Positions 1 through 19,961 of a DNA stretch of 19,961 nucleotides are shown here, piece by piece. The stretch spans positions 1 through 19,961 of the forward strand of contig CBDCTH010000011.1 in NCBI GenBank assembly GCA_965222155.1, read 5' to 3'. Numbering within the stretch: the stretch's first letter is position 1; every line of letters starts with the position of its first letter. This DNA comes from Gammaproteobacteria bacterium (GTDB taxonomy: Bacteria; Pseudomonadota; Gammaproteobacteria; Eutrophobiales; Eutrophobiaceae). The notes under the pieces were generated by a model, which saw only the letters and a list, made by a program, of their open reading frames with translations, ran no database searches and was not told the origin of the DNA. The translations under genes were made by a program, and so were the position numbers.

Positions 1-183
1 CGTGTGCGGGAATGGTACGGAGGGTGTCTACTGACTTTGAGATGCCCCTGTTGTCAGGAACATTGCTGTCCGTAGCTGTAACGCATACTGTGTTTTCCTG
101 GTGTTTTCCAACATAAAAAGGTTACAAGCAGTTTTTCCATTGTAGAATGTCGGTACTCAAATCAGACTGACAGAGGAAATGTA

Positions 184-840
184 ATGTTGAAAGCACAAAA
201 GTTTTGGTTATTTTTCGTTGCCCCCGGGGTTTTATCGGCCTGTTATCAGGAGGCGAAGGTCGCGGATGGCGAGGCATTCCGGGTGCAGGCGGCGGATGTG
301 GATAAGAGCAATCCGAACTGGAAACAGCAACTTGACAAGCCCGGGGTTATGGACTTTAAACCCGGCGAGAAATACTACTGGGAGATGGAAACCAACGTAG
401 GCAATATGAGCTTCCTGCTGTTCCACGAGAGCACGCCCATGCATGTGAGCAGTACGATATACCTCACCGAGCTGGGGTTTTATGATGAGGTGCTGTTGCA
501 CCGGGTCATCCCCGGATTCATGGCGCAGGGCGGCGATCCCACCGGCACCGGACGGGGTGGTCCCGGCTATCGTTATGAGGGCGAGTTTCCCGCGGGCCTG
601 TCCCACGATCGCCCTGGACTGCTGAGCATGGCGAATGCCGGGCCCGGAACGGACGGCAGCCAGTTCTTTATAACCTTTGTGCCTACTCAATACCTGGATG
701 GCAAGCACACAATCTTCGGGGAACTGGTAGCCGGTCAGGAAACGCTGAAGGCCCTGGAAGAACGCGGCAACAACAGCGGCCGGACTGTCGAGAAACTGGA
801 GATCATCAAGGCCACTATCCGGCGCGAGACCGTATCCTAG
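184..840 (+). CDS. Cyclophilin-type peptidyl-prolyl cis-trans isomerase, predicted lipoprotein
   Basis: Cyclophilin motifs [42 protein letters not shown] and [10 protein letters not shown]-terminal hydrophobic stretch ends in lipobox LSAC (Cys20). SD AGAGGA lies upstream of the ATG. Confidence 0.93.
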
Positions 841-863
841 AGAACCGCTGTATGGAGCAAGGC

Positions 864-3524
864 ATGACTGACGATAAACTAAAAACCATTACGGTAAATA
901 ACAAGGAATACCGGATTTATTCACTACAGGCGCCGGACGGGAGGCAAGACATCAGCCGCCTGCCCTATTCCCTGAAAATCCTGCTGGAGAACCTGTTACG
1001 CCACGAGGACGGGGTCAATATCACCCGCGCCGACATCACTGCCCTGGCCGATTGGGATGCGAAGGCAAAGCCGGAACAGGAGATCTCCTTTACCCCGGCC
1101 CGGGTATTGATGCAGGACTTTACCGGCGTCCCGGCTGTGGTTGATCTCGCCGCCATGCGCGACGCCATGCAATCACTGGGCGGCGACCCGGAAAAGATCA
1201 ATCCGCTGTCGCCGGCTGAACTCGTCATTGATCATTCAGTGATGGTGGACGTCTTCGGCACGGCGGATGCGGCGCAACGAAACGCGGTCATTGAATTCAA
1301 ACGCAACCGGGAACGCTATGAGTTCCTGCGCTGGGGACAACAGGCGTTCTCCAATTTCAAGGTGGTGCCGCCGGACACCGGCATTGTGCACCAGGTCAAC
1401 CTGGAATACCTGGCCAGGACGGTGTTCACCAGGGAGGTTGACGGCGTGGTCGAAGCCTATCCCGATACCGTGGTCGGCACCGATTCCCATACCACGATGA
1501 TCAACGGCCTGGGCGTACTCGGCTGGGGCGTGGGCGGTATTGAGGCGGAAGCGGCAATGCTGGGACAACCTATCACCATGCTGATCCCCGAAGTGGTCGG
1601 TTTCAAACTCAGCGGCGCGCTGCCTGAGGGCGCTACGGCCACGGACCTGGTCCTGACCGTGGTTGAAATGCTCAGGAAACACGGCGTGGTGGGCAAGTTC
1701 GTCGAATTTTACGGAGACGGCCTGGACAACCTGTCGCTGGCCGACCGGGCGACCATCGCCAACATGGCGCCGGAATACGGCGCGACCTGCGGCATCTTCC
1801 CCATTGACCGGGAAACCGTCAATTACCTGCGCCTGTCAGGCCGGGATAATGAGCAGGTTGAACTGGTCGAGGCTTACGCAAGGGCGCAGGGGATGTGGCG
1901 TGACACCGGGACGCCGGAAGCCGATTATTCCGCCACCCTGAGTCTTGATATCGGCACGGTAACGCCCAGCCTGGCAGGGCCGAAACGGCCCCAGGACCGG
2001 ATCCCTCTGGCGCATGCCAAAGACAGTTTCCGCGGGCACCTGGCGGACGCTACCAGGGGTCGGGACGGTGGCGGGGTTGCCCGGGTGGAAACGCCGCTGG
2101 GTGACCATTACGATTTGAAAGACGGTGCGGTAGTCATTGCGGCCATCACCTCTTGCACCAATACGTCAAACCCCTCGGTAATGGTCGGCGCCGGGCTGGT
2201 CGCAAAAAAAGCCGGCGCGCGTGGGCTGGCGGTCAAACCCTGGGTAAAGACCAGCCTGGCGCCGGGCTCCCTGGTAGTGCGCGACTACCTGAACCGGGCC
2301 GGGCTCACGGCTGATCTCGACAACCTGGGATTCAATATCGTCGGCTACGGTTGCACCACCTGTATCGGCAATTCCGGCCCCTTGCCCGAGGAGGTAAGTC
2401 GGGGGATTGCGCAAGGTGATCTGGTCGCTACTGCGGTATTATCCGGCAACCGCAACTTTGAAGGCCGGGTTCATGCAGAAGTCAAAATGAATTTCCTGGC
2501 CTCGCCGCCGCTGGTGGTCGCCTATGCAATAGCCGGAACGATGGATATCGACCTGCAGAATGACCCCCTGGGCCGCGACGCCGACGGCAACGCCGTCTAC
2601 CTGAAGGATATCTGGCCCAGCCAGGCCGAGATCAATGGCGTCATCGCCGCATCGGTCGATTCGGACATGTTCCGTAATTCATACCGGCAAGCCTTTACCG
2701 GTGATGCCAACTGGACCGGCATCAACGTCCCGGAGAGCAACCGCTATCAATGGAGCAACGACTCCACTTACGTACAGAACCCTCCTTATTTTGAGGGCAT
2801 GAGCGCCACGCCAGACGCGCTTGAACCGATACAGGGCGCAAGAATACTGGTAAAGCTGGGCGACAGCATCACCACCGATCACATCTCCCCTGCCGGCGCC
2901 ATCAAGGCCGACACGCCGGCGGGCAGGTACCTGATCGATAAAGGGGTAAAGCCGGTGGATTTCAACTCATACGGCTCCCGGCGCGGCAACCACGAGGTGA
3001 TGATGCGCGGCACCTTTGCCAATATCCGTTTGCGCAATCAACTGGCGCCGGGAACTGAAGGGGGATGGACCATACACCAGCCTTCCGCTGAACAGATGTC
3101 GATTTACGCGGCGGCGATGAGGTACAAGGAGGAAGACGTGCCCTTGATCGTCCTGGCAGGCAGTGAATACGGCACCGGTTCATCCCGGGACTGGGCGGCA
3201 AAAGGCGCCAGGCTGCTTGGCGTGCGCGCGGTGATTGCAGTCAGCTTTGAGCGCATACACCGTTCCAACCTGGTCGGCATGGGGGTGCTGCCCCTGGTGT
3301 TCAAGCCCGGTGAAAATACCGATAAACTCGGTTTGACGGGGCGGGAAACCTATTCCATCCACGGCCTGGAAAGCGGCGCCAGGGAAGTCGGGGTCAGCGC
3401 CAGCGCGGATGACGGGACCCAAACTGAATTCACTGCGATTGTCCGGGTGGACACACCAAAGGAATGGGACTACTACAACAACGGCGGCATCCTGCACTAT
3501 GTCCTGCGGGAATTAGCCGCCTGA
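864..3524 (+). CDS. acnA: Aconitate hydratase A (AcnA/IRP family)
   Basis: Motifs [72 protein letters not shown] (Fe-S cysteines), TTDHISPAG and [15 protein letters not shown] 864 has GGAG 6 nt upstream; the ORF track start at 852 is the alternative. Confidence 0.97.
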
Positions 3525-4697
3525 AGCAACAAGCTCCGTTTTTTGTCTTTGCGAAATATATGATGTGACAAGCAGCGCGAGCATCACGCAGTAGCACAGA
3601 CTGGTAAACCGCAGGACTGCAATCATGTCGAATTTTTCAACGATAAATGAACTGGCAGCAGGTGCGATGGCAGTTCCCAGCGCCGAGTTGAATATCAGGT
3701 AACTGATCATCCTCGGAGTGGGCGCCGCAACCAGCATGATGCCGAATGCGATGATCAGTTTCAACATCCCACCGGTAACAAGACCCAGGATAAATATGCT
3801 GACAGTCAAATGCGAGACTGAATCGACACTCCACAAGGTAACAGTCAACACGGTAGACAATACACCGGAAATAAATATGACCCTGGTCAGCGTGAACCTG
3901 AGTACAAGGAAGAACATTATCAGCTGGCCGATAAACATACCCAGGAACAACCGGCTGACCAGTTTGCCTGCCATATCCGGGTTCAGATTAAATTGTTCCT
4001 GGGTGTAATTGGGTATCCAGGAATAGATCGTGACAAAGCCTGCCAGGTAGATCAGGATAGCAGCGCCGATCAGGTAAATTTCAACAGGCCAGTAGTTGCC
4101 GGCGCCTGCATTAACGGGAGTGGAACCCTGTCTCGACGTAGCCGGGTAACTGGAGAACCAGGCAATGAGGGCTATGAGCAGCGCTACTGAAAAAGCAAGC
4201 AGGTAGGCGCTGCTCCAGTGCAATTGGTTCAGAATAAATTTACCGGCAAGAAAAGTGCTGATGACACCGGCCATACTGTAGAACGAATCGGTCAGCAGCA
4301 TCATTGACGCGCGCAGTCCGGAAGTATAGATATTTGTGATGACGACTATCGCAGCCGTCAAATTCACGCCGCAGGACAGGCCGACCACAAACAACCATAA
4401 CGGAAAAAAGAGATAGAGATCGACGATATAGATACTTGCCAGTGAAACACAGGTCAATCCCGAACAACACAGGATGATATTCTTTATCCGGGCCAGGTCG
4501 AAAATAACCAGCGAAATCAGGGTGCCGACCAGGATTCCAGCAGTCAGGTAGCTGAAACCGGCAGTTGCGGTGGTTATCGAGAGGTCGTAGTGTCGGGCAA
4601 TTGGGGCGGTGACGATGCCCAGCGGCGAAATAACCGCAGACATGACAAAATAAGCCATAAAGCTCGTCAATGTAATCCTGTATTTGTTTGCCGGCAT
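3513..4697 (-). CDS. tsgA: MFS transporter, TsgA-like
   Basis: 394 aa with about 12 hydrophobic segments. [11 protein letters not shown] and the N-terminus ([13 protein letters not shown]) resemble my recollection of E. coli TsgA (LLFTDSFFSMAG). Overlaps the acnA 3' end by 12 bp, convergently. Confidence 0.75.
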
Positions 4698-4754: not shown

Positions 4755-5423
4755 CTATTTCAGTATTCCATTCATTAAAATCTGTTTAATGTTTTTCCTG
4801 GTTTGATTATAAAATCTTGGGTCGTCAAGGTTTTTCCCCAGTACGGAATCAATTTGTATGGCAAAATCCGCATAATGTTGTGTCACGGCCCAGATCATCA
4901 TAATCAGGTGGTAGGGGTCGATATCAACCATCTCCCCCCGTTTCACCCATTTTCTTATCACCCGGGCCTTTTTCTTTACTATGTCACGTAAATAGGTATC
5001 CAGCACGGGCTTCAGGATGGGCGCACCGGCGGCAATCTCATTTGCGAATACACGCGATGACATTGGGTACACCCTGGAAAATTCTATTTTCTGGTCAATA
5101 TATGCGCCGATTTCGTGTTCCGGCGATTCCTTCTCGTCCAGTTCCTTCAAGGGTTGCAGCCATATTTCCAGGATGTTGCGCAACACGGTGAGATAGAGTT
5201 CTTCCTTGGATGAAAAATAATAGAGCAGGTTCGGTTTGGACATATCGGCCTTGTCTGCGATCTGGTCGATTGTCGCACCCCGGTAGCCGTACATGGAAAA
5301 GATTTCTGTCGCCGCATTCAGGATTTTTTCCCTGTTGCGGACCTGAATCCGGCTGTCTTTCTTCCTGTGCTCCTTCTGTTCCAGGTCCAGGGCGTCAAAC
5401 AGGGGAGGGTTTGAACTCAACAT
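4755..5423 (-). CDS. rutR: TetR-family pyrimidine-sensing regulator (RutR/PydR)
   Basis: HTH ATIDQIADKADMSKPNLLYYFSSKEELY. RutR-type C-terminal motifs LEIWLQPL, SRVFANEI and DPYHLIMMIWAVTQHYADF keep the Trp/Trp/Gln uracil-binding positions. Divergent from the pyrimidine catabolic operon. Confidence 0.9.
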   Translation of the reverse strand: MLSSNPPLFDALDLEQKEHRKKDSRIQVRNREKILNAATEIFSMYGYRGATIDQIADKADMSKPNLLYYFSSKEELYLTVLRNILEIWLQPLKELDEKESPEHEIGAYIDQKIEFSRVYPMSSRVFANEIAAGAPILKPVLDTYLRDIVKKKARVIRKWVKRGEMVDIDPYHLIMMIWAVTQHYADFAIQIDSVLGKNLDDPRFYNQTRKNIKQILMNGILK

Positions 5424-5468: not shown

Positions 5469-5484
5469 TTGACCAAAGGATAAA
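5469..5484. promoter_or_regulatory. Putative RutR operator
   Basis: TTGACCAAAGGATAAA matches the RutR consensus TTGACCAnnTGGTCAA at 11/14 positions and lies between rutR and the -35 of the catabolic operon. A perfect half-site TGGTCAA is at 5561-5567. Confidence 0.65.
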
Positions 5485-5594: not shown

Positions 5595-7944
<2,350 letters not shown>

Positions 7945-7959
7945 AGTAGAATACGACCC

Positions 7960-9495
7960 ATGAGATCAATACAAGCAGTAGAAAACCTGAATGCAAGCGA
8001 CCGGATAGTCGGTCATTACATCAATGGCCGGACAATAACAGACGGCAATGAACGTACCCTGGCAGTTTATAATCCCGCTACGGGCCAAGTCGCCCGCCGG
8101 GTAGCGCTGGCGGGTAAGGCAACGGTGGAAAAAGCCGTTGCAGCAGCAGCAGCGGCCTTTCCGGGATGGCGCAGCACACCTCCTGTGAAACGTGCCCGGC
8201 TCATGTTCCGTTTCAAGACCTTATTGGAACAGCATGAGAATGAGATTGTCAGCCTGTTGACCGAAGAACACGGTAAAGTCCTGGATGATGCATGCGGCGA
8301 GTTTACCCGGGGTGTGGAGGTGGTCGAATATGCCTGCGGCGCGCCCGAATTGTTGAAGGGAGAGCACAGTAAGGACGTCGGTCCCGATATCGACAGCTGG
8401 TCCGAATTTCAACCGCTGGGAGTGGTCGCCGGCATTACGCCATTTAATTTCCCGGCCATGGTGCCTTTATGGATGTACCCCATGGCCATCATCTGCGGCA
8501 ATACGTTTGTGTTGAAACCATCGGAAAAAGACCCGAGCGCACCGACCCGTATCGCTGAACTGCTCCAGGAAGCAGGATTGCCGGACGGTGTATTTAATGT
8601 AGTCAATGGCGACAAGGAAGCTGTTGATGCGTTATTGACCGATCCCCGGGTGCAGGCTGTCAGTTTTGTCGGTTCAACACCCGTGGCTGAATACATCTAT
8701 CGCACCGGGACGGCAAACGGAAAGAGAGTACAGGCACTGGGAGGGGCGAAGAATCACGCCGTTGTGATGCCGGATGCCGATACTGACAATGCAGTGAACG
8801 CGTTAATGGGCGCCGCTTATGGCTCCTGTGGCGAGCGCTGTATGGCCATTTCCGTAGTAGTCTGTGTCGGTGATGCGGTAGCCGACGAGATGGTAACCCA
8901 ACTGGCCGCGCGGGTAACAGGCCTGAAGATCGGTCCGGGTATCGACAGCCGTAATGAAATGGGTCCCCTGATCAGTAAACCGCACTTTGAAAAAGTACGC
9001 AGCTACGTTGATACAGGTATCGCGGAAGGCGCAGAACTGGTGGTGGACGGACGCGAGATTAATGTTCCTGAGCAGCCGGAAGGCTTCTTTATGGGCGGCT
9101 GCCTGTTTGACCGGGTCACACCGGACATGCGTATATACAAGGAGGAAATCTTTGGCCCCGTATTATGCATGCTGCGCGTCCAGAGCCTGCAGGAGGCAAT
9201 GCAACTCATCGATGAACATGAATACGGAAACGGCACCTGCATATTTACCCGTGACGGCGGCGCTGCCCGTTATTTCACTGACAATATACAGGTCGGCATG
9301 GTCGGCGTCAACGTGCCCTTGCCGGTACCGGTTGCCTGTCACAGTTTCGGCGGCTGGAAACGCTCCCTGTTCGGCGACCTGAGCATTTACGGTCCCGATG
9401 CCATACGTTTTTATACACGGCGTAAAACCATCAGCCAGCGCTGGCCTTCAGATTCCGTTGAGAAAGCGCAGTTTTCCTTTCCCAGCACTCAGTAA
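7960..9495 (+). CDS. mmsA: CoA-acylating (methyl)malonate-semialdehyde dehydrogenase
   Basis: GITPFNFPAMVPLWMYP, LKPSEKDP, SFVGSTPVAEYIY, QALGGAKNH, catalytic GERCMAIS, EEIFGPV and GMVGVNVPLPVP. Confidence 0.93.
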   Translation: MRSIQAVENLNASDRIVGHYINGRTITDGNERTLAVYNPATGQVARRVALAGKATVEKAVAAAAAAFPGWRSTPPVKRARLMFRFKTLLEQHENEIVSLLTEEHGKVLDDACGEFTRGVEVVEYACGAPELLKGEHSKDVGPDIDSWSEFQPLGVVAGITPFNFPAMVPLWMYPMAIICGNTFVLKPSEKDPSAPTRIAELLQEAGLPDGVFNVVNGDKEAVDALLTDPRVQAVSFVGSTPVAEYIYRTGTANGKRVQALGGAKNHAVVMPDADTDNAVNALMGAAYGSCGERCMAISVVVCVGDAVADEMVTQLAARVTGLKIGPGIDSRNEMGPLISKPHFEKVRSYVDTGIAEGAELVVDGREINVPEQPEGFFMGGCLFDRVTPDMRIYKEEIFGPVLCMLRVQSLQEAMQLIDEHEYGNGTCIFTRDGGAARYFTDNIQVGMVGVNVPLPVPVACHSFGGWKRSLFGDLSIYGPDAIRFYTRRKTISQRWPSDSVEKAQFSFPSTQ

Positions 9496-10405: not shown

Positions 10406-11885
10406 TCCACGGCGTATCCTCACGCTTCTACTCCTGTACCTGCTCTGTATGCCGGCGAGTCTCGCCCAAATCACTGTCGGGAGCAAAAACTTCAATGAAA
10501 GCTACCTGCTGGCCGAAATAATTGCACAGTCGCTGGAATTGGAAGGGTTCAGTGTTGACAGGAAGTTTGGCCTGGGCGGCACACTGGTCTGTTACGAGGC
10601 CCTGGCGAACGGCGCGATAGATGTTTACGTGGAGTATACAGGCACCCTGGCGGAAGTCATCCTGAAGACAGATATTCCGGCAACGGCCCTGGACCAACTG
10701 AATACCGCGGTCTCGGAACGGGGCCTGCAGGTACTCGATCCACTCGGGTTCAACAACACGTACGCCCTGGTGATGCGGGAAAAAACCGCCGAAGAGAAAG
10801 GGATTTCATGGATATCGGACCTCGCATCCCACCCGGAACTGGTTCTGGCCTTCTCCCTGGAATTCCTGAATCGGGAAGACGGCTGGCCCGGCCTGGACGC
10901 GACTTACGACCTGTCCGGAAAGCCCACAGGTATTGAACACGGTCTGGCCTACCAGGCCATCGTCGATGGGTCTGTTGATGTGATTGACGCCTACTCCACT
11001 GACGGGGAACTGTCCAGGTATGCCTTGACCGTGCTCGACGACGACCGAGGTTATTTCCCGCAATATTTTGCTGTCCCGTTTACGCGCCTGGACCTGCCGG
11101 ACAGAGCCAGGGAAGTCCTGCTTGGCCTGTCTGGAAGAATCGACGATGACCGTATGCAGGAACTGAACAGGATGACGACCATCGACGGTAAGAGCTTTGC
11201 AGAAGTTGCGAGTGAATTCATCCGGGATGAAGGACTGGGGGATACGGAAGTTGAATACGGGCTTGTCTCTTCGATCCTGGGCAATACCGTGACCCATCTC
11301 AAGCTGACGGCTATAGCCCTGGCCCTGGGCTGCCTGTTGGGTCTGCCGCTGGGCATTCTTGTTTTTCGCATCCGTTCCGTGGCGAGAGTCACCGTTTACC
11401 TTGCCGGGTTGCTGCAGACCATCCCTTCCATCGCATTACTGGCGCTGATGATCCCGCTGTTCGGGATTGGTGAACGACCGGCGATCATCGCGCTGTTTCT
11501 GTATTCCCTGTTGCCCATACTGCGAAACACCATTACCGCGCTGGTCACTATCGACCCGCTGTTGAAACGGGTGGCCGAAGCCATAGGCTTGACCAGGTGG
11601 GAACAACTGCGCCATGTATTACTACCGATGGCGCTACCGACTATCCTTGCGGGCGTCAGGACGGCAGCCATCATCAGCATCGGCACGGCGACCCTGGCTG
11701 CGTTCATCGGCGCAGGCGGGCTGGGTGAACCTATCGTAACCGGACTGGCGCTGAACGATACCAACCTGATCCTGCAGGGCGCCATCCCGGCGGCGGGCCT
11801 GGCCATCCTGGTGGAACTTTTCTTTGAGTTACTGGAAAGATTACTGGTGAAACCTCACATGCTGGCGGGGCAGTTGCCGAAATAG
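10395..11885 (+). CDS. Betaine-type ABC transporter, fused substrate-binding (N-terminal, OpuAC-like) and permease (C-terminal) protein
   Basis: Signal peptide, then ITVGSKNFNESYLLAE, YVEYTGT, GFNNTYAL, EFLNREDG, DAYSTDG and FPQY. C-terminal permease has QTIPSIALL, an EAA-loop region (VAEAIGLTRWEQL) and IGAGGLG. Overlaps the ATPase gene. Confidence 0.88.
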   Translation: MMANPRRILTLLLLYLLCMPASLAQITVGSKNFNESYLLAEIIAQSLELEGFSVDRKFGLGGTLVCYEALANGAIDVYVEYTGTLAEVILKTDIPATALDQLNTAVSERGLQVLDPLGFNNTYALVMREKTAEEKGISWISDLASHPELVLAFSLEFLNREDGWPGLDATYDLSGKPTGIEHGLAYQAIVDGSVDVIDAYSTDGELSRYALTVLDDDRGYFPQYFAVPFTRLDLPDRAREVLLGLSGRIDDDRMQELNRMTTIDGKSFAEVASEFIRDEGLGDTEVEYGLVSSILGNTVTHLKLTAIALALGCLLGLPLGILVFRIRSVARVTVYLAGLLQTIPSIALLALMIPLFGIGERPAIIALFLYSLLPILRNTITALVTIDPLLKRVAEAIGLTRWEQLRHVLLPMALPTILAGVRTAAIISIGTATLAAFIGAGGLGEPIVTGLALNDTNLILQGAIPAAGLAILVELFFELLERLLVKPHMLAGQLPK

Positions 11886-11904
11886 TTCTGGTGAGAAATC
11901 CGGG

Positions 11905-12915
11905 CTAGCGCTGACCGGCAAACCCGGGGATGACGGCTTCTGCGTATCTGGCAATGATCTCTTCTTCATTGCCGTTGTCCAGGTAGATGTTGAATTGTGT
12001 TATCCCTGCCTTTTCCAGTTCCCTCAATTTGGCAACATGGTCGGCAGGACTGCCTAATACACAGAAGCTCCTGACGATGTCAGGGGTAATGAAGTCCAGG
12101 AAAGGGTTATCACTCCGGCCATGTTTTTTATAATCATAGCCACGCCGTTTTTCAATATAAGCGGTCAGACTGCCCGGCACTTCCCCGGTATTTGCGCCAT
12201 ACTTCTCAACAATATCGGCAACGTGGTTGCCTACCATGGCGGGGAACCACCTAGTCGCTTCAACGCATTCATCCAGTGAGCCAAAATAAGCCGGCGCAGC
12301 AGACATGACCCTGAAGGCCGACATATCCCGTCCGGCAGCCTTGCCGGCTGTCCGGCACTGCTCTACAAACCAGGATATCAGTGCCGGTTCCGCTATCTGC
12401 AGGATTACCCCATCACCATGCCTGCCCGCTGTTGCCAAAGCTTTTGGACCATAAGCGGCTATCCATACCGGGAGATCATAGCTGGCAGCCCAGTCGAACT
12501 GGACGGGTTCCGGACATTCTTCATAAGTCACCTCCTCACCACGGGCCAGGGCTTTCACCTTTTGCGCAAATTCAGTCAGACGGCTCAGGCCGGCAGGTTT
12601 TTTACCCATTACCCGCATGGAACTGTCACCCCGACCCAGGCCTATATCAAACCGGCCGCCACTTTGCAGGGCCAGACTTGAAAACATGCTGGCCGCCACG
12701 GACCAGTCCCTGACGTTCGGATTGGTGACACAAGGACCGAAGCGCATGTTTTTCGTGTATTCCATACACATGGCGATAGCGGCATAACAATCGCGCCAGA
12801 GGATATGTGAGTCATAAAACCAGCAATAACTGAACCCGCCTGTTTCCGCCTGGCGCACCAGGTAACGCGCCCGGTCCGGGCTGACGGAACCCTTGAAGCA
12901 AATACCGAATTCCAC
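11905..12915 (-). CDS. LLM-class (luciferase-like/Mer-like) oxidoreductase, TIGR03842/CPS_4043-like
   Basis: WFYDSHILW, GPCVTNP..RD, GLGRGDS, VWIAAYGPKAL, RWFPAMVGNHVADIV and GYDY..HGRSDNP..DF match my recollection of the CPS_4043-type family. GTG start with SD AAGGAGG 8 nt upstream. Confidence 0.82.
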   Translation of the reverse strand: MEFGICFKGSVSPDRARYLVRQAETGGFSYCWFYDSHILWRDCYAAIAMCMEYTKNMRFGPCVTNPNVRDWSVAASMFSSLALQSGGRFDIGLGRGDSSMRVMGKKPAGLSRLTEFAQKVKALARGEEVTYEECPEPVQFDWAASYDLPVWIAAYGPKALATAGRHGDGVILQIAEPALISWFVEQCRTAGKAAGRDMSAFRVMSAAPAYFGSLDECVEATRWFPAMVGNHVADIVEKYGANTGEVPGSLTAYIEKRRGYDYKKHGRSDNPFLDFITPDIVRSFCVLGSPADHVAKLRELEKAGITQFNIYLDNGNEEEIIARYAEAVIPGFAGQR

Positions 12916-12994
12916 TTACATTCCCTCCTTTAAACTGAAAACCACGTTATAACTAAAGCCAGTATCGTTAAGGCCGTTTGAGTAACATTAACAA

Positions 12995-13084
12995 TGTCAC
13001 TTCTCAACCCCTCGACAGCCATTCCTGCGAAAGCAGGAATCCAGCGTAAGTAACAAAACAGTGATACTGTCACTTCTCAACCCC
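12995..13084. repeat. 17-bp direct repeats flanking a REP-like hairpin
   Basis: TGTCACTTCTCAACCCC occurs at 12995-13011 and 13068-13084. Between them is the perfect hairpin ATTCCTGC-GAAA-GCAGGAAT (13021-13040). Confidence 0.75.
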
Positions 13085-13102
13085 CCTGAAAATCCATGTG
13101 AC

Positions 13103-14598
13103 TCAATGTCTGCCAATGGATTGAACCCTCATCAACAAATAATAGATAAACCCGGCCAGCAATGCCCCCACAAACCAGGCATAGTGATACAAGCTGGTAA
13201 AAAAAGACGGTAAATCGCCTGTCACACCGATAGCATTTAAAAACCCGGGGGCAGTGGGCGCAATGCCCAGGCACAAGGCTATCACCGCATTCATATTCCA
13301 GCCCTTTTTATAGCTGTATGCTCCCTGCTCCCGATAAAGCTCAGCGGTTTCCAGGCGGCATTTCCTCACAAAGAAATAATCCGTGATCATGATGCCGGCA
13401 ATGGGTCCCAGCAGGGATGAATAACCGATAAGCCAGATAAACAGGTATGCGCCGGCAGATTCCAGCAGTTTCCACGGCATGATTGCAATGCCTATCCCGG
13501 CGGTGATATATCCCCCCAACCTGAATGAAATCCTCCCCGGCGCCAGGTTGGAAAAACCGTTGGCAGGCGCAACGACGTTTGCGGCCAGGTTTGTGGTTAA
13601 CGTGGCAATCGTCAGTGCAATCAGTCCCAGGATGACCCCGGCTCCGTCAAGCCGTCCCGCCAGGACAACCGGGTCCCAGATCGCTTCTCCAAAAATGATT
13701 ACGGTCGCCGAGGTAACAAACACACTGACAAGAGCCAGTATCGCCATAGGGACAGGCAAACCTATTCCCTGGCCGAGCAACTGGTCGCGCTGGTTGCGCG
13801 CATAACGGGTGAAATCCGAAATATTGAGTGACATGGTTGCCCAGAAGCCCACCATCGCCGTCAAGCCGGGCCAGAATACCTGCCAGAATTCTCCCTCCCG
13901 TACCCCACCGGACACGAACGCCGAAGGTCTTGACAACATGTCGCCAAAACCTCCGGCGCGTACATACGCCCAGGCCAGTAGAGCAAACGCGGCCAGTAAC
14001 AAAAAAGGCGCTGCCAGGGTCTCCAGCCAGCGGATGGCCTCCGTCCCTTTCTCTATAAAGACAAGTTGTAATGCCCAGAATGCCAGGAAACACAGTAACT
14101 GGGCAAAGTCGATATCAATAAACGGGATAGCCGATCCGGTGAAAGCATCCGCGCTCATTGCATTGAGTATCTGGTAGATGGCAAAGCCCCCTACCCAGGT
14201 CTGGATGCCGAACCAGCCGCAGGCGACCAGGCCGCGCAGCATGGCCGGCAGTCTGGCCCCAATCGTACCGAAGGAAGCGCGTAACAAAACGGGAAACGGC
14301 ACACCATATTTTGTACCGGCATGACCGTTCAACATCATCGGGATCATGATGATGAGATTGCCCAGAAATATCGTCAATACCGCCTGCCACCAGGCCATGC
14401 CCTGCTGCATCAGGCCGGAAGCCAGTAGATAAGCCGGAACGGAAACAACCATGCCGAACCAAAGCGCCGAGATATTGTCCAGCTCCAGGTCCTCTGTTTC
14501 TCCCCCGCCGGGGCGAGGTCCTCGTTCCATAGGGAATTCTCCGGATTCACCCGGATATCCGGCTTCTGATGAGGCATTTGAACAGCAGTTGCATTCAT
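13103..14598 (-). pseudogene. NCS1-family nucleobase:cation symporter with a 1-nt frameshift near 14478 (pseudogene or sequence error)
   Basis: The conserved N-terminus SLWNEDLAPAGEKQRTWSW is in ORF 14410..14598. The continuation NISALWFGMVVSVP, GTKYGVPFPVLLRASFG, CGWFGIQTW, SLNISDFTRYA, NLAANVVAP and PWKL is in ORF 13103..14530. Adding one base gives about 498 aa. Confidence 0.8.
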
Positions 14599-14605
14599 GA
14601 GGATT

Positions 14606-15841
14606 TCAGGGCTGACGCTTCACCGGCAGGCCCACCAACCCGCGACTCTGGACGCCGGTTTTCCATTCAAGCCGGTCTGCGCTCACAGCCGGTTCCAATC
14701 CGGGAAGACGCCGTAATATTGTGTTAAACATGATCTCCATATTCTGGCGCGCCAGGTGATTACCCAGGCAATGGTGAACACCGCCACCAAACGCCAGGTG
14801 ACGATTCGGGTCGCGCCGAATATCAAATGCATCCGGCTCATCAAAACAGGCGCTGTCCCGATTGGCTGAAGCGTACAGAAAGCCCAGCTTTGCGCCTTTT
14901 TCAAACACGTATCCCCGGTATTTCATATCTTCCAGCGCATACCGGTGAAAATAGGGCAAGGGCGGTTCATAGCGAAACATTTCCTGTACCGCGGTATGAA
15001 TCAGCCCGGGGTCTGCCTTCAGCGCGGCCATCTGCTCCGGGTGTTGAAACAAGGCCAGCATACCGTTTCCCAGCGCATCAATCGTTGAACCGTGTCCCGC
15101 CATGAGAATAGTCATGGCGGTCGAAACCAGTTCATCATGATTCAGGCAATCGCTGCCATCCCGCCATGCGATCATTTCTGAAATCAGGTCAGAGCCCGGC
15201 TGTTCCCGACGCATTGCCGTCATTTCAGTCATGTAAGCCACAAACTCCGTCGTAGCCCGCTCCGCCAGTTCCCTGTGCGCTTCGGTCCGTTCAGGTTCAA
15301 AAAACTGGACGATATCTTCCGACCATGTGCGTAACCGGGAACGGTCCGGTTCCGGTACGCCCAGCATTTCCCCTATGACAAATCCCGGTACGGGGGCAAC
15401 CAGGTCTTCCATGAAATCGAACTCTTTTTCCGCTTCAATGGTGTCGATTTTACGGTTGACTAAAGCCTGGATAAAGCTCTGCATCTGATTGATCCGCGCA
15501 GGAGTGAAAAGCCTGAATACCGCCTTCCTTAACCGGCTGTGCAGTTCCCCTTCACTGTCAATAATCGACACCTTCACATAACGGCTGTGGGCCGGCGCCG
15601 CCTCCCAGTTCTGTCTTTCACGATATGCGGCAATCTCCTCGCAGGTCATGACATGATCCATGGTCCTGCCCAGACGTTCATCCATAACCAGTGTTTTAAT
15701 ATCATCATACCGGGAGAACAGCCAGACTTTCCAGTCCTCGTGATAACGGACGGGACATTCCTCTCGCATACGCGCATAGACGGAATAAGGGTCCCGGGCA
15801 AATTCTGTTGAATAGGGTTCAAAACTGAAAAGATGGTTCAT
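14606..15841 (-). CDS. Cytochrome P450
   Basis: Heme motif HLAFGGGVHHCLG, K-helix EMFR (ExxR), SANRD, FDEPDAFDIRR and N-terminal FARDPYSVYARMRE. Start is uncertain: ATG 15841 has AGGA upstream; ATG 15850 and GTG 15883 are in frame. Confidence 0.93.
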   Translation of the reverse strand: MNHLFSFEPYSTEFARDPYSVYARMREECPVRYHEDWKVWLFSRYDDIKTLVMDERLGRTMDHVMTCEEIAAYRERQNWEAAPAHSRYVKVSIIDSEGELHSRLRKAVFRLFTPARINQMQSFIQALVNRKIDTIEAEKEFDFMEDLVAPVPGFVIGEMLGVPEPDRSRLRTWSEDIVQFFEPERTEAHRELAERATTEFVAYMTEMTAMRREQPGSDLISEMIAWRDGSDCLNHDELVSTAMTILMAGHGSTIDALGNGMLALFQHPEQMAALKADPGLIHTAVQEMFRYEPPLPYFHRYALEDMKYRGYVFEKGAKLGFLYASANRDSACFDEPDAFDIRRDPNRHLAFGGGVHHCLGNHLARQNMEIMFNTILRRLPGLEPAVSADRLEWKTGVQSRGLVGLPVKRQP

Positions 15842-15996
15842 TATCGGCATCCTGTATTCAGGTATTACCTTTGACAGCTTCACAATGCTTTATAACGGGC
15901 ATGATTAACGCTACGTTACTGAATAAGCGGCCCCATTTTCAGTTCGTGTTCCAATTGCCTTATATGGCGAATGAACAGGTATTGTAAGACATCCTG

Positions 15997-16026
15997 AACA
16001 GAAAGGGGCGCGCAGCGCGCCCCTTT
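15997..16026 (-). terminator. Probable intrinsic terminator downstream of the TonB-dependent receptor
   Basis: Perfect 11-bp stem AAAGGGGCGCG-(3 nt)-CGCGCCCCTTT at 16002-16026. On the minus strand it ends in TTTCTGTT. It starts about 25 nt after the TBDR stop. Confidence 0.7.
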
Positions 16027-16051
16027 ACCCGGTTATTGATCGGCACAGGGT

Positions 16052-18250
16052 TTAATCGGCGCCGAATGTCTTGGAAAAACGCACTCCGAATTCACTCCGG
16101 TCATTACTGCGGATGGTAATGGAAAAAGGATTGCCGAAAGTGCCGGATGCATTATCGTAGACTTCGTTCAGGACGTTCTCTCCGTAGATTGCAACGTGCC
16201 AACTGGGGTTGTCGGGTTGATAACGGATATTAAAATCCAGCAGTTCGCGGCTCTCGACCAGGTTCAAAGGATTGTTGTTCGCTTCACCGTACATCTCACC
16301 CCGGTAATTGTAATTAAGGCGAAATGCGAGAGAACCGCCGCTGTTCATGGGTACCACGAACTCTGGTGATATCGAAAACGTCCAGTCCGGCGTCAATTGC
16401 GGAACACCGCCTTCAACGGTCCCTATTACGGCCGGGTCAACTTCGGTAAATTCCGAATCCATGTAACCGACGGCGGTCTGCACACTGAAATTCTCATCCA
16501 CCTGTAATTTGCCTTCAAACTCCACTCCCCAAGTGCGCGATTCACCGGCATTTTCAGTGATGGTCAGAAATCCGAAATCCGGATCGAAACGATTGGTCTG
16601 CAACTGCAGGTCGGTATAATCCGTCCAGAATATGGTCGTCGCCAGGCGCAAACGGTCGAACAGGACACCTTTTATTCCTCCTTCATAGTTCAGGGCAAAT
16701 TGCGGGTCAAAGGAGACGAACGTCGCATCGCCACCGAACGGCCGGGCCGGGAACCCGCCGCTTTGATATCCGCGGGAGATCGCTACGTAAAAATTCAAAT
16801 CATCATTGATGGAATAAGTGGCAGACGCATCCCAGGTCACTTCCGTCCAGTCTTCCGAGCGCGGCACCGGGATGGCCGGCTGGAACAGCGCCGCCACCCC
16901 GGCGGCATCCTTACTGTCATCGCTGACGCGCACACCACCGCCTATCACAAGGGTATCAGTCAGTGAATAATCCACCGAACCAAACAGGGCCCAGCTCTCA
17001 ACATCCTGGGAGACATTGATCTCGCCGTCGGTGACAAACGGAGGGAAGATTTCGAATGGCCGGGATACCGTCTCACCGTCTTCGGTATAATAATAGGCGC
17101 CAGTGACAAAATTCCAGGAAGCAAAATCACCACTGAATTGTATTTCAGCAGAGTACTGGTCAGCCTCACCCCGTTCCGGAAAGACAATTGCGCCAAGGCT
17201 GTCCTGCTGATCCGTACCGCCTGTGTATTCGCTGAAACGATAACTGCCGATAAACTTTGCGGAATAGACATTCGTAATACTCCAGTCCGCGCTGGCAGAA
17301 ACACCATAGGCCTGACTGGTCTGTTTCGCGATGTTGTCTGCCGGCGAGGCATTATCATCGGGGTCGGGGGCAAACAGGCTGCCGGGCAAACCATTGGGAA
17401 ATTGCCCCGGGGGCGCATTAAAATAGGTTGGGGACTGGCCGTGGGCGCTATCGGAGAAATCCGCGGTCAGCAATAGGGAAAAATCATCAGAAGGGGTGAA
17501 ATTGAACATGGCGCGCAGCGCGGCTTCACGAATCTGGCCCAGTTCAACTTCCGTATTCGGCTGATTGATAAATTCTCCTACGCCATTGCGCCGGTTATAC
17601 AATCCGGTAATTGAGGCGGACAGGTTGTCCGATAACGCGGTAGTACCGTAAAAATCGAATTTCCCGCGCGCTCGGGTACCCCCTTGTACGGTCAGTGTTG
17701 CCTCATCCTCTCCCCCGGGCTTCTTTGTTATCACGTTGATTGCGCCGCCTATCGAATTGCGCCCGTATAACGTACCCTGGGGGCCGCGCGCCACTTCAAC
17801 CCGCTCGATATTGGACAGGCTCAGGTTTGAACCGACCTGGCGACCCAGGTAAACGCCATCAAGATACAGGCCCACCGCCGAATCAACCGTAATGATATGG
17901 TCCTGAGTGCCGACGCCGCGCATGAACACGCTGGTATGATTCTGGTTGCCGTTGCCGAAATTTCCGATAAACAGGTTGGGCACGTTCTTACCCACGTCAT
18001 ACAGGTCGCCCATATTCAGGTTGGCGAAATCCTCCTCGGTAAAAGCAGTCAATGCAACAGGTATATCCTCGAGGCTCTCTTCCCGTTTTCTTGCCGTCAC
18101 GACAATTTCCTCAAAAACACTTGCGCCACTGCCTGCATCCTGGGCAAAGGCAATGTTTGTGTTCACCAGAAAAAACGATGCACATAAAAACAGACTGGTT
18201 ATACGAAGGCACCATTCAGTGCCGACAGTAAAGATGTTGACTTTAGCCAT
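16052..18250 (-). CDS. TonB-dependent outer-membrane receptor
   Basis: Signal peptide ending AFA/QD, TonB-box region EEIVVTARKREESLEDIPVALTAF, plug motif IERVEVARGPQGTLYGRNSIGGAINVIT, and C-terminal YGENVLNEVY...FGVRFSKTF. ATG 18250 has GGGGG 8 nt upstream; GTG 18256 is the alternative. Confidence 0.93.
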   Translation of the reverse strand: MAKVNIFTVGTEWCLRITSLFLCASFFLVNTNIAFAQDAGSGASVFEEIVVTARKREESLEDIPVALTAFTEEDFANLNMGDLYDVGKNVPNLFIGNFGNGNQNHTSVFMRGVGTQDHIITVDSAVGLYLDGVYLGRQVGSNLSLSNIERVEVARGPQGTLYGRNSIGGAINVITKKPGGEDEATLTVQGGTRARGKFDFYGTTALSDNLSASITGLYNRRNGVGEFINQPNTEVELGQIREAALRAMFNFTPSDDFSLLLTADFSDSAHGQSPTYFNAPPGQFPNGLPGSLFAPDPDDNASPADNIAKQTSQAYGVSASADWSITNVYSAKFIGSYRFSEYTGGTDQQDSLGAIVFPERGEADQYSAEIQFSGDFASWNFVTGAYYYTEDGETVSRPFEIFPPFVTDGEINVSQDVESWALFGSVDYSLTDTLVIGGGVRVSDDSKDAAGVAALFQPAIPVPRSEDWTEVTWDASATYSINDDLNFYVAISRGYQSGGFPARPFGGDATFVSFDPQFALNYEGGIKGVLFDRLRLATTIFWTDYTDLQLQTNRFDPDFGFLTITENAGESRTWGVEFEGKLQVDENFSVQTAVGYMDSEFTEVDPAVIGTVEGGVPQLTPDWTFSISPEFVVPMNSGGSLAFRLNYNYRGEMYGEANNNPLNLVESRELLDFNIRYQPDNPSWHVAIYGENVLNEVYDNASGTFGNPFSITIRSNDRSEFGVRFSKTFGAD

Positions 18251-18350
18251 TTCCACTACCCCCTATACGCTACGTATTTGAAGCCGGATTCTGTACAAGA
18301 TCGCCGGTAGCCGCCGTATTATCCCGGTACGGAGTACGGGCAGCAGGGTA

Positions 18351-18379
18351 ATGATTCCATTTTCTGACCATAGAGTCAA
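18351..18379 (-). promoter_or_regulatory. Candidate TBDR promoter with overlapping RutR-like operator (18364-18379)
   Basis: Minus strand TTGACT, 17-nt spacer ending TGG, AATCAT (extended -10 like). TTGACTCTATGGTCAG matches TTGACCAnnTGGTCAA at 11/14 positions and covers the -35. Confidence 0.6.
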
Positions 18380-18398
18380 AAAAATATTTATCATTTAA

Positions 18399-19712
18399 TC
18401 AAAATATTTTTTTGATGACCGGTTTTGTCAGAGGTTTTTCTTCGCTAAGCACAAACGCCTGTTGTAATAAATGACGCGCCAGGTCGGCATCGCTGTCATC
18501 CCGTACATGCAGGTAGGCTATTGGAGTATGTGGGTCAATACGGGCGCCAATTCCCGCGATATCCGTCAACCCGACACTGTGATCAATGCTGTCTTCAACC
18601 CGCTTTCTGCCCCCGCCCAGTGCCACGATCACATTTCCGGCCTGGCGTACGTCAATATCGGCGAGGTAACCCTCTCCATCGAGAAAGACAGGTTTGATAA
18701 CCGGGCTGGGCGGCAGATAACGATCGATTCGTTCAATAAGATCAGGAGGACCTCCCATGGCCGTGGTCATTTCCATAAAGACCCGGGTCGCCTGCCCTTG
18801 ATCCAATGCGGATTGTAATAATTTCCCCGCTGCATGGCGGTCTTCCCCGATACCGGCCAATGCCAGCATATCGGTCGCCAGGGTGAGAACGACTTCGTGC
18901 AGGCGAGGGTCACGATAAGCGCCTGTCAGATAATTGATGGTCTCGCGTACTTCAAGGGCATTACCGGCGTTGCGTCCCAGGACTTCCGACATATCGGTGA
19001 TTACGGCCCTGACGGGCAGGCCGATTTCAGCCGCAGTATTGATAATGGTATCAGCCAGCGCATCAGCGGCTGTTTCAGTTTCCATAAAAGCGCCGCTACC
19101 TGTTTTGATATCCATGACCAGGCCGTCCAGGCCGGCTGAAACTTTTTTGGATAATATCGACGCGGTAATCAGTGGAACGGACTCGACGGTTGCCGTGACG
19201 TCACGTATTGAATAGAAACGCCGGTCTGCAGGGGCGAGTTCAGCCGTCTGGCCGATGATCGCACAGCCCACCGACCTGACCGTTCGTTTGAAGACATCAA
19301 GGCCCGGGGCGGTATCATAGCCGGGGATACTGTCCAGCTTGTCGAGGGTGCCGCCGGTATGCCCCAGACCACGTCCGGAAATCATGGGTATATAAGCGCC
19401 GCACGCGGCCACTAGAGGCGCCAGAATTAAACTGACCTTATCGCCCACGCCACCCGTTGAATGTTTATCGACGACCAGCCCGTCGATACCTTCAGCGGCC
19501 CAGTCAAGCACACTACCTGAATTTACCATAGCCCTGGTCAGTTCAGCGGTTTCGGCAAAATTCATGGATTGAAAACAGATGGCCATGGCCAGGGCTGATA
19601 TTTGCTCGGATGCAATTGAGCCGTCTGCCAGACCGTTGACGAAGAAGCTTATCTCAGCAGGCGTAAGCGCCTCTCCGATTCTTTTTTTCCTGATAATTTC
19701 CTGGGGGAGCAT
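18399..19712 (-). CDS. deoA: Thymidine phosphorylase
   Basis: MLPQEIIRKKR N-terminus, VDKHSTGGVGDKVSL, PMISGRGLGHTGGTLDKLDSIPGY, APADRRFYSIRDVTATVES, ITASILSKK and LGGGR. ATG 19712 matches the usual DeoA N-terminus; the ORF track start is 19763. Confidence 0.95.
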   Translation of the reverse strand: MLPQEIIRKKRIGEALTPAEISFFVNGLADGSIASEQISALAMAICFQSMNFAETAELTRAMVNSGSVLDWAAEGIDGLVVDKHSTGGVGDKVSLILAPLVAACGAYIPMISGRGLGHTGGTLDKLDSIPGYDTAPGLDVFKRTVRSVGCAIIGQTAELAPADRRFYSIRDVTATVESVPLITASILSKKVSAGLDGLVMDIKTGSGAFMETETAADALADTIINTAAEIGLPVRAVITDMSEVLGRNAGNALEVRETINYLTGAYRDPRLHEVVLTLATDMLALAGIGEDRHAAGKLLQSALDQGQATRVFMEMTTAMGGPPDLIERIDRYLPPSPVIKPVFLDGEGYLADIDVRQAGNVIVALGGGRKRVEDSIDHSVGLTDIAGIGARIDPHTPIAYLHVRDDSDADLARHLLQQAFVLSEEKPLTKPVIKKIF

Positions 19713-19827
19713 GCGAGCGAGTGTATCTTCGTATATTAACTTATTTTCTGATCTCCGTGGCATACCGGCCCAGCCACGCTTACGTTATACTATCACCAGA
19801 TGCTGAACCGGCAAACGGGCAAACACC

Positions 19828-19961
19828 ATGGCAACAATCAAACCAGATGATCTGATAACAAGCGTTGTGGATTCCCTGCAGTTTATATCCTACTACCATC
19901 CGCAGGATTTTATCGCAGCGGTACACAACGCCTACCAGCGGGAAGAATCCCCGGCGGCCAA
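19828..19961 (+). CDS. Class I (Fe-S) fumarate hydratase, 5' part, truncated by the window edge
   Basis: Hand translation from ATG 19828 gives MATIKPDDLITSVVDSLQFISYYHPQDFIAAVHNAYQREESPAA. This matches the N-terminus I recall for proteobacterial class I fumarases (DDLIQSVADALQFISYYHP.DFI...AY.REESPAA). Absent from the ORF track. Confidence 0.88.
   Translation, partial: MATIKPDDLITSVVDSLQFISYYHPQDFIAAVHNAYQREESPAA

Follow-up and report, generated by a model that had tools for sequence, protein, structure and literature searches.

Reductive pyrimidine catabolism begins with the saturation of the C5=C6 bond of uracil or thymine, a step carried out by the NAD(P)H-dependent PreT/PreA pair (PydX/PydA), in which PreA joins a DHO_dh barrel to a C-terminal iron-sulfur (Fe-S) domain of the 4Fe-4S type and PreT is a GltD-like flavoprotein. 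A ferredoxin-dependent variant of this first step, PydAc of Clostridium chromiireducens (Wang et al. 2020, as cited in PMC12507026), provides a precedent for the use of a different electron donor; as presented there, however, PydAc is still a DHO_dh (PF01180) enzyme with FMN, and those passages of the paper that name pyrimidine PydA variants list NAD(P)H- and ferredoxin-dependent ones only (PMC12507026). Here, we analyse a stretch of 19,961 bp (hereafter, the window), which constitutes the entire contig CBDCTH010000011.1 (C11) of a gammaproteobacterial assembly of 4.55 Mb in 12 contigs (GCA_965222155.1). The window encodes enzymes for steps 2 and 3 and for the end of the reductive pathway and, next to a gene for an NCS1-family nucleobase permease, a luciferase-like monooxygenase (LLM)-class protein of the TIGR03842 family (hereafter, the LLM). 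A preliminary description of the window had raised the possibility that this protein replaces the missing dihydropyrimidine dehydrogenase, and the comparative analysis presented below suggests that the LLM is indeed probably an F420H2-dependent uracil/thymine C5=C6 reductase acting in place of PreTA.

The proposed enzyme would share with PreTA the reaction, the place in the pathway and the proximity to dihydropyrimidinase and carbamoylase genes. By contrast, the LLM is a single barrel devoid of an Fe-S motif, which would receive its electrons from a diffusible deazaflavin; the two systems show no homology and are nearly mutually exclusive across genomes, so that the link between the LLM and dihydropyrimidine dehydrogenase is one of functional analogy, not of family membership. 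PydAc, too, differs from the LLM in both fold and cofactor. The RutA/RutF system parallels the proposed one in that an LLM-fold enzyme with a dedicated cofactor reductase acts on uracil under the control of RutR, but RutA is an FMN/O2-dependent, ring-opening monooxygenase, its model is not matched by the LLM, and the protein is absent from the present assembly (see below). Mer (PDB 8qpl, 1z69) matches the LLM in fold and probably in its F420 site, and transfers a hydride from F420H2 to an unsaturated carbon next to a nitrogen, as the LLM is proposed to do; the LLM nevertheless stays under the Mer cut-offs, has Cys or Thr in the position of Mer Glu6, carries a segment (residues ~223-276) that replaces the pterin-binding segment of Mer, and resides in hosts that are not methanogens. 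Two further systems can be likened to the LLM by description, not by sequence. NpsU/SSGG-03002 is a putative F420/FMN oxidoreductase described as required for reduction of the uracil ring in mureidomycins, that is, for the same chemistry on the same ring, although it acts on a uridyl-peptide antibiotic (napsamycin/mureidomycin) in Streptomyces and, according to the same account, no in-vitro activity was obtained (PMC10714638). In uricolytic clusters of Chloroflexota, an F420-type PF00296 LLM has been suggested on bioinformatic grounds to be a 'yanthine reductase' (PMC12507026); this enzyme, as described, likewise occurs in clusters without a PydA-like or YgfK-like ring reductase, but its pathway is the degradation of a purine, uric acid.

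Gene order around the LLM connects it to both F420 and pyrimidine catabolism. Homologous loci were collected from species-representative genomes, and the best 80 of 169 (70-85% identity, from Gamma- and Alphaproteobacteria; the other 89 fall below ~70%) were mapped with the proteins of the window and those of one Marinomonas locus. In 49 of the 80 loci, the gene for NADPH:F420 oxidoreductase, npdG, lies directly upstream of the LLM, and 47 loci contain the complete string cofG-cofH-cofD-cofC-cofE-npdG-LLM, with a RutR-like gene ahead of it in 44. Another 20 loci, here referred to as the Devosia type, carry beside the LLM the genes for F420-dependent glucose-6-phosphate dehydrogenase (Fgd), CofE and a putative F420-0 ABC importer. 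The binding protein alone of this importer exceeds its curated cut-off, as permease and ATPase score just under theirs. The cassette is followed by the LLM in 17 of these 20 loci, whereas L073, L081 and L097 are incomplete or otherwise ordered. Within this type, which spans L066-L097, the order at L088:5299-11002 is RutR box, Fgd, cofE, putative F420-0 importer, RutR box and LLM. No cofD was present in any of the five Devosia-type genomes searched; the cofactor is therefore apparently imported, and the cassette looks like a device for cofactor scavenging under pyrimidine control. Altogether, 69 of the 80 loci join the LLM to F420 synthesis or import together with an F420 reductase and, given that two unrelated reductases are involved, it can be argued that the enzyme consumes F420H2. 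The remaining 11 loci comprise the clade of the window and two others; here, the LLM is found beside an NCS1, dihydropyrimidinase, amidase or carbamoylase gene in 10 cases, L027 being the exception.

Genes for dihydropyrimidinase, amidase or M20 carbamoylase were detected within the 10-kb flanks in 45 of the 80 loci. In Marinomonas foliarum, dihydropyrimidinase, NCS1, carbamoylase, the RutR-like gene, cofGHDCE, npdG and the LLM form a single contiguous block, and a Vibrio carries the same block supplemented with genes for the CoA-acylating (methyl)malonate-semialdehyde dehydrogenase (MMSDH) and an omega-aminotransferase. In a Devosia, dihydropyrimidinase is found in a separate RutR-MMSDH-carbamoylase-dihydropyrimidinase locus, which also contains a RutR-type box. 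Because cofGHDCE-npdG-LLM operons preceded by RutR-type boxes are joined to dihydropyrimidinase and carbamoylase genes, we regard F420 rather than FMN, on sequence grounds, as very probably the cofactor. Of the two reduced cofactors considered in the preliminary description, F420H2 has thus gained the support of these operons and of the F420-using relatives discussed below, whereas FMNH2 has become very unlikely.

The distribution of the LLM across genomes was assessed by counting PreA and dihydropyrimidinase in the genomes of 50 of the 80 loci (the 30 left out are mostly further Marinomonas and Devosia species) and in two baselines, a class sample of 250 genomes and an unselected phylum sample of 401 genomes. 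PreA over the cut-off is found in none of the 50 LLM-carrying genomes, the best sub-threshold score being 222 bits, and dihydropyrimidinase over the cut-off in 47. The 222-bit match is a PreA-like frame of 437 aa in a Motiliproteus metagenome-assembled genome (G023, locus L055; C1:1617732-1618934), which has no dihydropyrimidinase at E<=1e-80 and may represent a different pathway variant. In the class sample, nine genomes besides the present one are dihydropyrimidinase-positive: four with PreA right beside, one (G079) with the LLM and without PreA, and four with neither. Dihydropyrimidinase is encoded in 71 of the 401 genomes of the phylum sample; among the 70 besides the present one, 52 have PreA, 3 the LLM and 16 neither, two of the LLM carriers lacking PreA and one (G330) possessing it. 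All four LLM carriers of the phylum sample fall among the 71 dihydropyrimidinase-positive genomes and none among the 330 negative ones, an outcome with a hypergeometric probability of about 0.001 (0.005 if the present genome is set aside). In control genomes, PreA is located 1-3 kb from dihydropyrimidinase. When the counts are pooled, PreA is found in 1 of 55 LLM carriers vs 54 of 73 dihydropyrimidinase-positive non-carriers, in agreement with the anticorrelation that had been anticipated for a replacement.

The assembly that contains the window conforms to this pattern. No protein in it exceeds the cut-off of the PreA model (NF006183; best score, 158 bits vs 335); the best match, a class-1 dihydroorotate dehydrogenase (PyrD), is the one DHO_dh protein present, and the sole Fer4_20 protein is GltD, the small subunit of glutamate synthase. 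The absence of PreT and PreA, previously noted for the window, where a profile search of the 14 large open reading frames (ORFs) detected neither these enzymes nor F420 biosynthesis genes nor a flavin reductase, hence extends to the genome in the case of PreA over the cut-off and of any Fer4_20 protein other than GltD. For RutA, the best frame in the assembly reaches 161 bits vs a cut-off of 498 and is located at another place than the LLM. Of the reductive pathway, the organism thus encodes step 2, step 3 and the final part but no known enzyme for step 1, and it lacks the Rut pathway. The F420 genes, which the preliminary description had noted to be lacking from the window, are found elsewhere in the genome, all over their cut-offs: cofD (288 bits), cofE (274.8 bits), fused cofGH (fbiC; 1150.6 bits), cofC (118 bits) and npdG (204.3 bits), with cofD adjoining cofE, and cofC adjoining npdG.

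Several additional features of the genome pertain to these families. The class-1 PyrD is encoded at C12:791806-792663 (NF005574, 365 bits), no quinone-dependent class-2 enzyme being found in addition to it in the assembly. Five close relatives (G001-G003, G005 and G007) yield similar scores against the PreA model, ~138-154 bits. The cofC-npdG pair occurs twice with equal scores (C8:6526-7925 and C10:92013-93412), which fits redundant contigs; C8 and C10 duplicate one another, and the contamination of the assembly amounts to 7.28%. A second Mer-like, F420-type LLM (362 aa) is encoded within C12:853410-859581 (L111), upstream of the fused cofGH and together with a fumarylacetoacetate-hydrolase-family gene and an M20 deacylase, and a third F420-type LLM at C10:56912-57859; given the presence of these two proteins, F420 serves more than one enzyme in this organism.

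The genomic context points to the LLM as a user of F420H2 under pyrimidine control but does not reveal the compound on which it acts, and F420-dependent LLMs include dehydrogenases operating at the alcohol/aldehyde level (Adf, FGD2). The LLM might, then, be a reductase of the pyrimidine regulon with another substrate, either malonic or methylmalonic semialdehyde, to be converted to the 3-hydroxy acid (cf. RutE/YdfG and PydE), or a base that has been modified or oxidised (for instance, 5-hydroxymethyluracil or a compound of the barbiturate type). We consider this alternative unlikely: it would leave step 1 without an enzyme in 54 of the 55 LLM genomes, although dihydropyrimidinase is present in 47 of the 50 examined for it; the semialdehyde is already removed by MMSDH in the window and in Vibrio-type clusters; and it would appear less economical to synthesise or import an entire cofactor for a side reaction accomplished elsewhere by NADPH-dependent enzymes.

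The LLM is a protein of 336 aa encoded from a GTG start codon on the minus strand, and its N-terminus aligns from residue 1 with those of 15 relatives. It belongs to TIGR03842, a hypothetical equivalog of NCBIfam annotated as LLM class F420-dependent oxidoreductase, the match (Table 1) covering residues 2-331 against a cut-off of 295.45 bits (in a search of the genome, 488.8 bits). Its annotation also includes PF00296.27, which places it in the luciferase-like superfamily. The Mer models rank next, both under their cut-offs (NF002619, 128.1 vs 276 bits; TIGR03555, 116.5 vs 348.7 bits). RutA (TIGR03612) is not among the 20 families matching the LLM at E<=0.001, and the choice between TIGR03842 and RutA posed in the preliminary description is accordingly decided for the former; neither the families of PreA nor those of PreT appear among the matches of the ORF. 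The AlphaFold2 (AF2) model (pLDDT 84.4, pTM 0.86) is a (beta/alpha)8 barrel. In a sequence search of the PDB, all 10 matches were F420-dependent LLMs (Mer, FGD2, Adf, FGD1 and the F420-dependent glucose-6-phosphate dehydrogenase 9hav), with Mer at the top (E 1e-28, about 27-28% identity; Foldseek E 9e-21, TM 0.76). Foldseek retrieved at least 260 PDB matches at E<=0.001, LLMs first (Mer with F420, 8qpl; 1z69; FGD2; Adf; FGD1); among the matches listed, ranks 1-20 are F420 enzymes, and the first FMN-type LLM occupies rank 21.

Conservation in the family is high, the mean column identity reaching 82% over two proteobacterial classes. Residues ~223-276, which contain a 10-residue insertion relative to Mer, are invariant in the family and form the least confident part of the AF2 model (pLDDT 61-64); they may form the substrate lid. 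Glu6 of wild-type M. jannaschii Mer (8qpm), a catalytic residue (PDB 8qq8 is the E6Q mutant of this enzyme), aligns with Cys6 of the LLM, the column being occupied by Cys in 5 and by Thr in 11 of 16 family members.

The same comparisons bear on whether the LLM could be an FMN-dependent luciferase-like monooxygenase that opens the ring in a RutA-like manner and is fed by a flavin reductase. The LLM fold is common to RutA and SsuD, and there are weak matches to the FMN-type LLM models TIGR04027 and TIGR03885 (E about 1e-5); nevertheless, such a role is very unlikely, given that RutA is missing from the matched families, that all nearest relatives use F420, that in the 69 loci described above the LLM is coupled with an F420 reductase and with genes to make or import F420, and that dihydropyrimidinase would be left without a substrate. 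Moreover, deazaflavins do not support oxygenase chemistry. Least credible is a housekeeping role, as a Mer-type methylene-tetrahydropterin reductase or some other F420 enzyme, with pyrimidine genes as fortuitous neighbours: Mer is the nearest characterised family, at the identity given above, but the LLM fails to reach either Mer cut-off, has Cys or Thr in place of Glu6, and recurs with dihydropyrimidinase and RutR boxes in two proteobacterial classes and three gene architectures.

For the LLM as an F420H2-dependent uracil/thymine reductase, we infer the substrate and the reaction from genomic context and presence/absence patterns, which lend computational support to the C5=C6 reduction originally envisaged. 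The base would be imported by NCS1 or freed from a nucleoside by thymidine phosphorylase, while F420 would be reduced by NADPH via NpdG/Fno or, in Devosia, by glucose-6-phosphate via Fgd. In the LLM, C6 of the base would then receive a hydride from F420H2 and C5 a proton, yielding 5,6-dihydrouracil or dihydrothymine, the ring of which would be opened by dihydropyrimidinase; the amidase would release beta-alanine or beta-aminoisobutyrate and, after transamination, MMSDH would produce the acyl-CoA. A RutR-like repressor sensing pyrimidines probably controls the whole set.

Potential operators were searched for with TTGACCAnnTGGTCAA, the RutR operator consensus of E. coli. At <=2 mismatches, the 80 loci (1.51 Mb) contain 84 RutR-type boxes vs 3-7 in five shuffles, and the boxes cluster at four places: 18 lie in the RutR-cofG gap, 10 in the carbamoylase-RutR gap, 19 at ~40 bp upstream of the Devosia LLM and 14 ahead of Fgd-cofE. 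In the window, two boxes with positional counterparts in related loci were identified (Table 1), one of them upstream of the minus-strand string receptor-P450-NCS1-LLM, whose first gene encodes the TonB receptor. This box overlaps a promoter-like site (18379-18351) from a promoter/terminator scan of positions 11700-18500, in which the counts overall were no higher than in shuffled sequence.

A number of observations weigh against the assignment of the LLM as the pyrimidine reductase or against parts of it. The F420 genes of this organism lie outside the window, unlinked to the LLM, and the base that is reduced may be uracil, thymine or a related one. Three of the 50 LLM genomes have no dihydropyrimidinase at E<=1e-80, and 16 of the 70 dihydropyrimidinase-positive genomes of the phylum sample have neither PreA nor the LLM, so dihydropyrimidinase without PreA is not rare in itself. 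G330 carries both PreA and the LLM, and the two systems can therefore coexist; in this genome, which has three dihydropyrimidinase copies, PreA adjoins one of them. The LLM carriers are also phylogenetically clumped (the 50 genomes include 9 of Marinomonas, 7 of Devosia and 6 of Vibrio, among 12 named genera), and the counts accordingly overstate independence. As for regulation, the operator consensus is that of E. coli and was not derived from these genomes, the 'RutR' genes score under the curated RutR cut-offs, and the boxes of the window have 3 mismatches. At <=2 mismatches, the 29 boxes found across the assembly are near the rough chance figure of ~15, and none is located in the window or at the F420 genes of this genome; for direct RutR control in this organism, the evidence consequently consists of the two conserved 3-mismatch boxes.

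We further put forward, with reservations and as a conjecture that could well prove wrong, that many marine Gammaproteobacteria and Devosia make F420 (cofGHDCE) or scavenge it (F420-0 importer and CofE) mainly or only to power the LLM, with the cofactor pathway being substrate-induced via a RutR-type repressor, and that the LLM provides them with an iron-sulfur-free dihydropyrimidine dehydrogenase, possibly as an adaptation to low iron. The reason why Proteobacteria synthesise F420 is listed among the unanswered questions in a passage of a 2021 review on this cofactor (PMC8498797). If the proposed assignment is true, F420 would acquire a concrete physiological job in Proteobacteria, explaining why some marine and soil members of the phylum make or import it, and, as an enzyme for step 1 of reductive pyrimidine degradation, the LLM would join NAD(P)H-dependent PreTA/DPD and ferredoxin-dependent PydAc as a third, non-homologous type. 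Induction of F420 biosynthesis by the substrate through a RutR-type regulator and bacteria living on F420 made by others would both be new for the ecology of the cofactor. Database names for the TIGR03842 family, which has thousands of members, are still generic, as are all source names of the homologues (6971 proteins at E<=1e-40). In a literature search that did not extend to subscription journals and supplements, no publication was found that names TIGR03842 or joins F420 with 'pyrimidine catabolism'; publications joining F420 with dihydropyrimidine dehydrogenase, dihydrouracil, 'reductive pyrimidine' or dihydropyrimidinase describe no such enzyme. Nor was any found that joins F420 and RutR, the RutR regulon tables (RegPrecise, PMC5343134 supplements), which might list cof genes, lying outside the search.

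Table 1. Coordinates of the pathway genes and RutR-type boxes in the window
Feature	Position	Strand	Profile score or location	Remarks
RutR-like TetR regulator	4755..5423	-	TIGR03613 254.8 bits (cut-off 368); NF011584 220.5 bits (cut-off 230)	both under cut-off
RutR-type box, 3 mismatches	5469..5484		RutR/amidase intergenic region	same place in L019-L023
Nitrilase-superfamily amidase	5595..6467	+	TIGR03381 238 bits (cut-off 410)	under cut-off; probable beta-ureidopropionase (step 3)
Dihydropyrimidinase	6484..7944	+	TIGR02033 602.3 bits (cut-off 393.25)	step 2
MMSDH, CoA-acylating	7960..9495	+	TIGR01722 683.3 bits (cut-off 448.5)	last step
LLM	11905..12915	-	TIGR03842 489.2 bits	candidate F420H2-dependent uracil/thymine C5=C6 reductase
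NCS1-family nucleobase:cation symporter	13103..14530	-	TIGR00800 349.3 bits (cut-off 353.1)	just under cut-off; probable uracil/thymine importer
RutR-type box, 3 mismatches	18364..18379		108 bp upstream of TonB receptor gene	same place in L020, L021
Thymidine phosphorylase (DeoA)	18399..19763	-	TIGR02643 598.9 bits (cut-off 570.7)	frees base from nucleoside

On the plus strand of the window, genes for a cyclophilin-like protein and acnA are followed by those for the amidase, dihydropyrimidinase and MMSDH, and by a two-gene betaine-type ABC transporter. The minus strand carries an MFS transporter gene and the RutR-like gene, the latter divergent from the hydrolase operon and, separately, a string composed of thymidine phosphorylase, TonB-dependent receptor, P450, NCS1 and LLM genes, which is convergent with the hydrolase operon. 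That steps 2 and 3 are encoded here, as originally stated, is confirmed for dihydropyrimidinase and plausible for the amidase, the top solved relatives of which are beta-ureidopropionases (2vhh, 8pt4 and 6ftq; E 1e-55 to 1e-57). The position of the LLM after the nucleobase permease also stands, the NCS1 gene lying 5' of it on the same strand across a 187-bp gap and directly preceding the LLM in seven close relatives (L020-L026) as well. The corresponding spacer is far shorter in these relatives, 3 to 110 bp, and that of the window contains an exact 17-bp direct repeat (12995-13011 and 13068-13084, 73 bp apart), of which there is no other copy in the assembly. The P450 and TonB-dependent receptor genes occupy positions 14606-18256, between thymidine phosphorylase and NCS1, and a P450 of 72-78% identity is also found in the pyrimidine clusters of L019 and L021-L023.

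The assembly contains a degraded second version of the window locus at C12:900647-909830, with flanks 99-100% identical to positions 1-3528 and 19779-19961 of the window. It keeps the MMSDH and ABC transporter genes at full length (82-96% nucleotide identity) but is devoid of the MFS transporter, RutR, amidase, dihydropyrimidinase, NCS1, TonB receptor and thymidine phosphorylase genes; what is left of the P450 is a truncated gene and, of the LLM, two small fragments. Decay has thus affected the LLM along with the genes specific to pyrimidines, a joint loss that speaks for its role in the pathway. In view of this allele, the contamination figure and the duplication of C8 and C10, the assembly may be mixed, with the window as a contig from a variant strain. 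Finally, a distant hydantoinase-like gene (31% identity to the dihydropyrimidinase) is located beside a CN-hydrolase gene (30%) at C12:1713627-1715882, and this pair may constitute a separate system for hydantoins or carbamoyl-amino acids.

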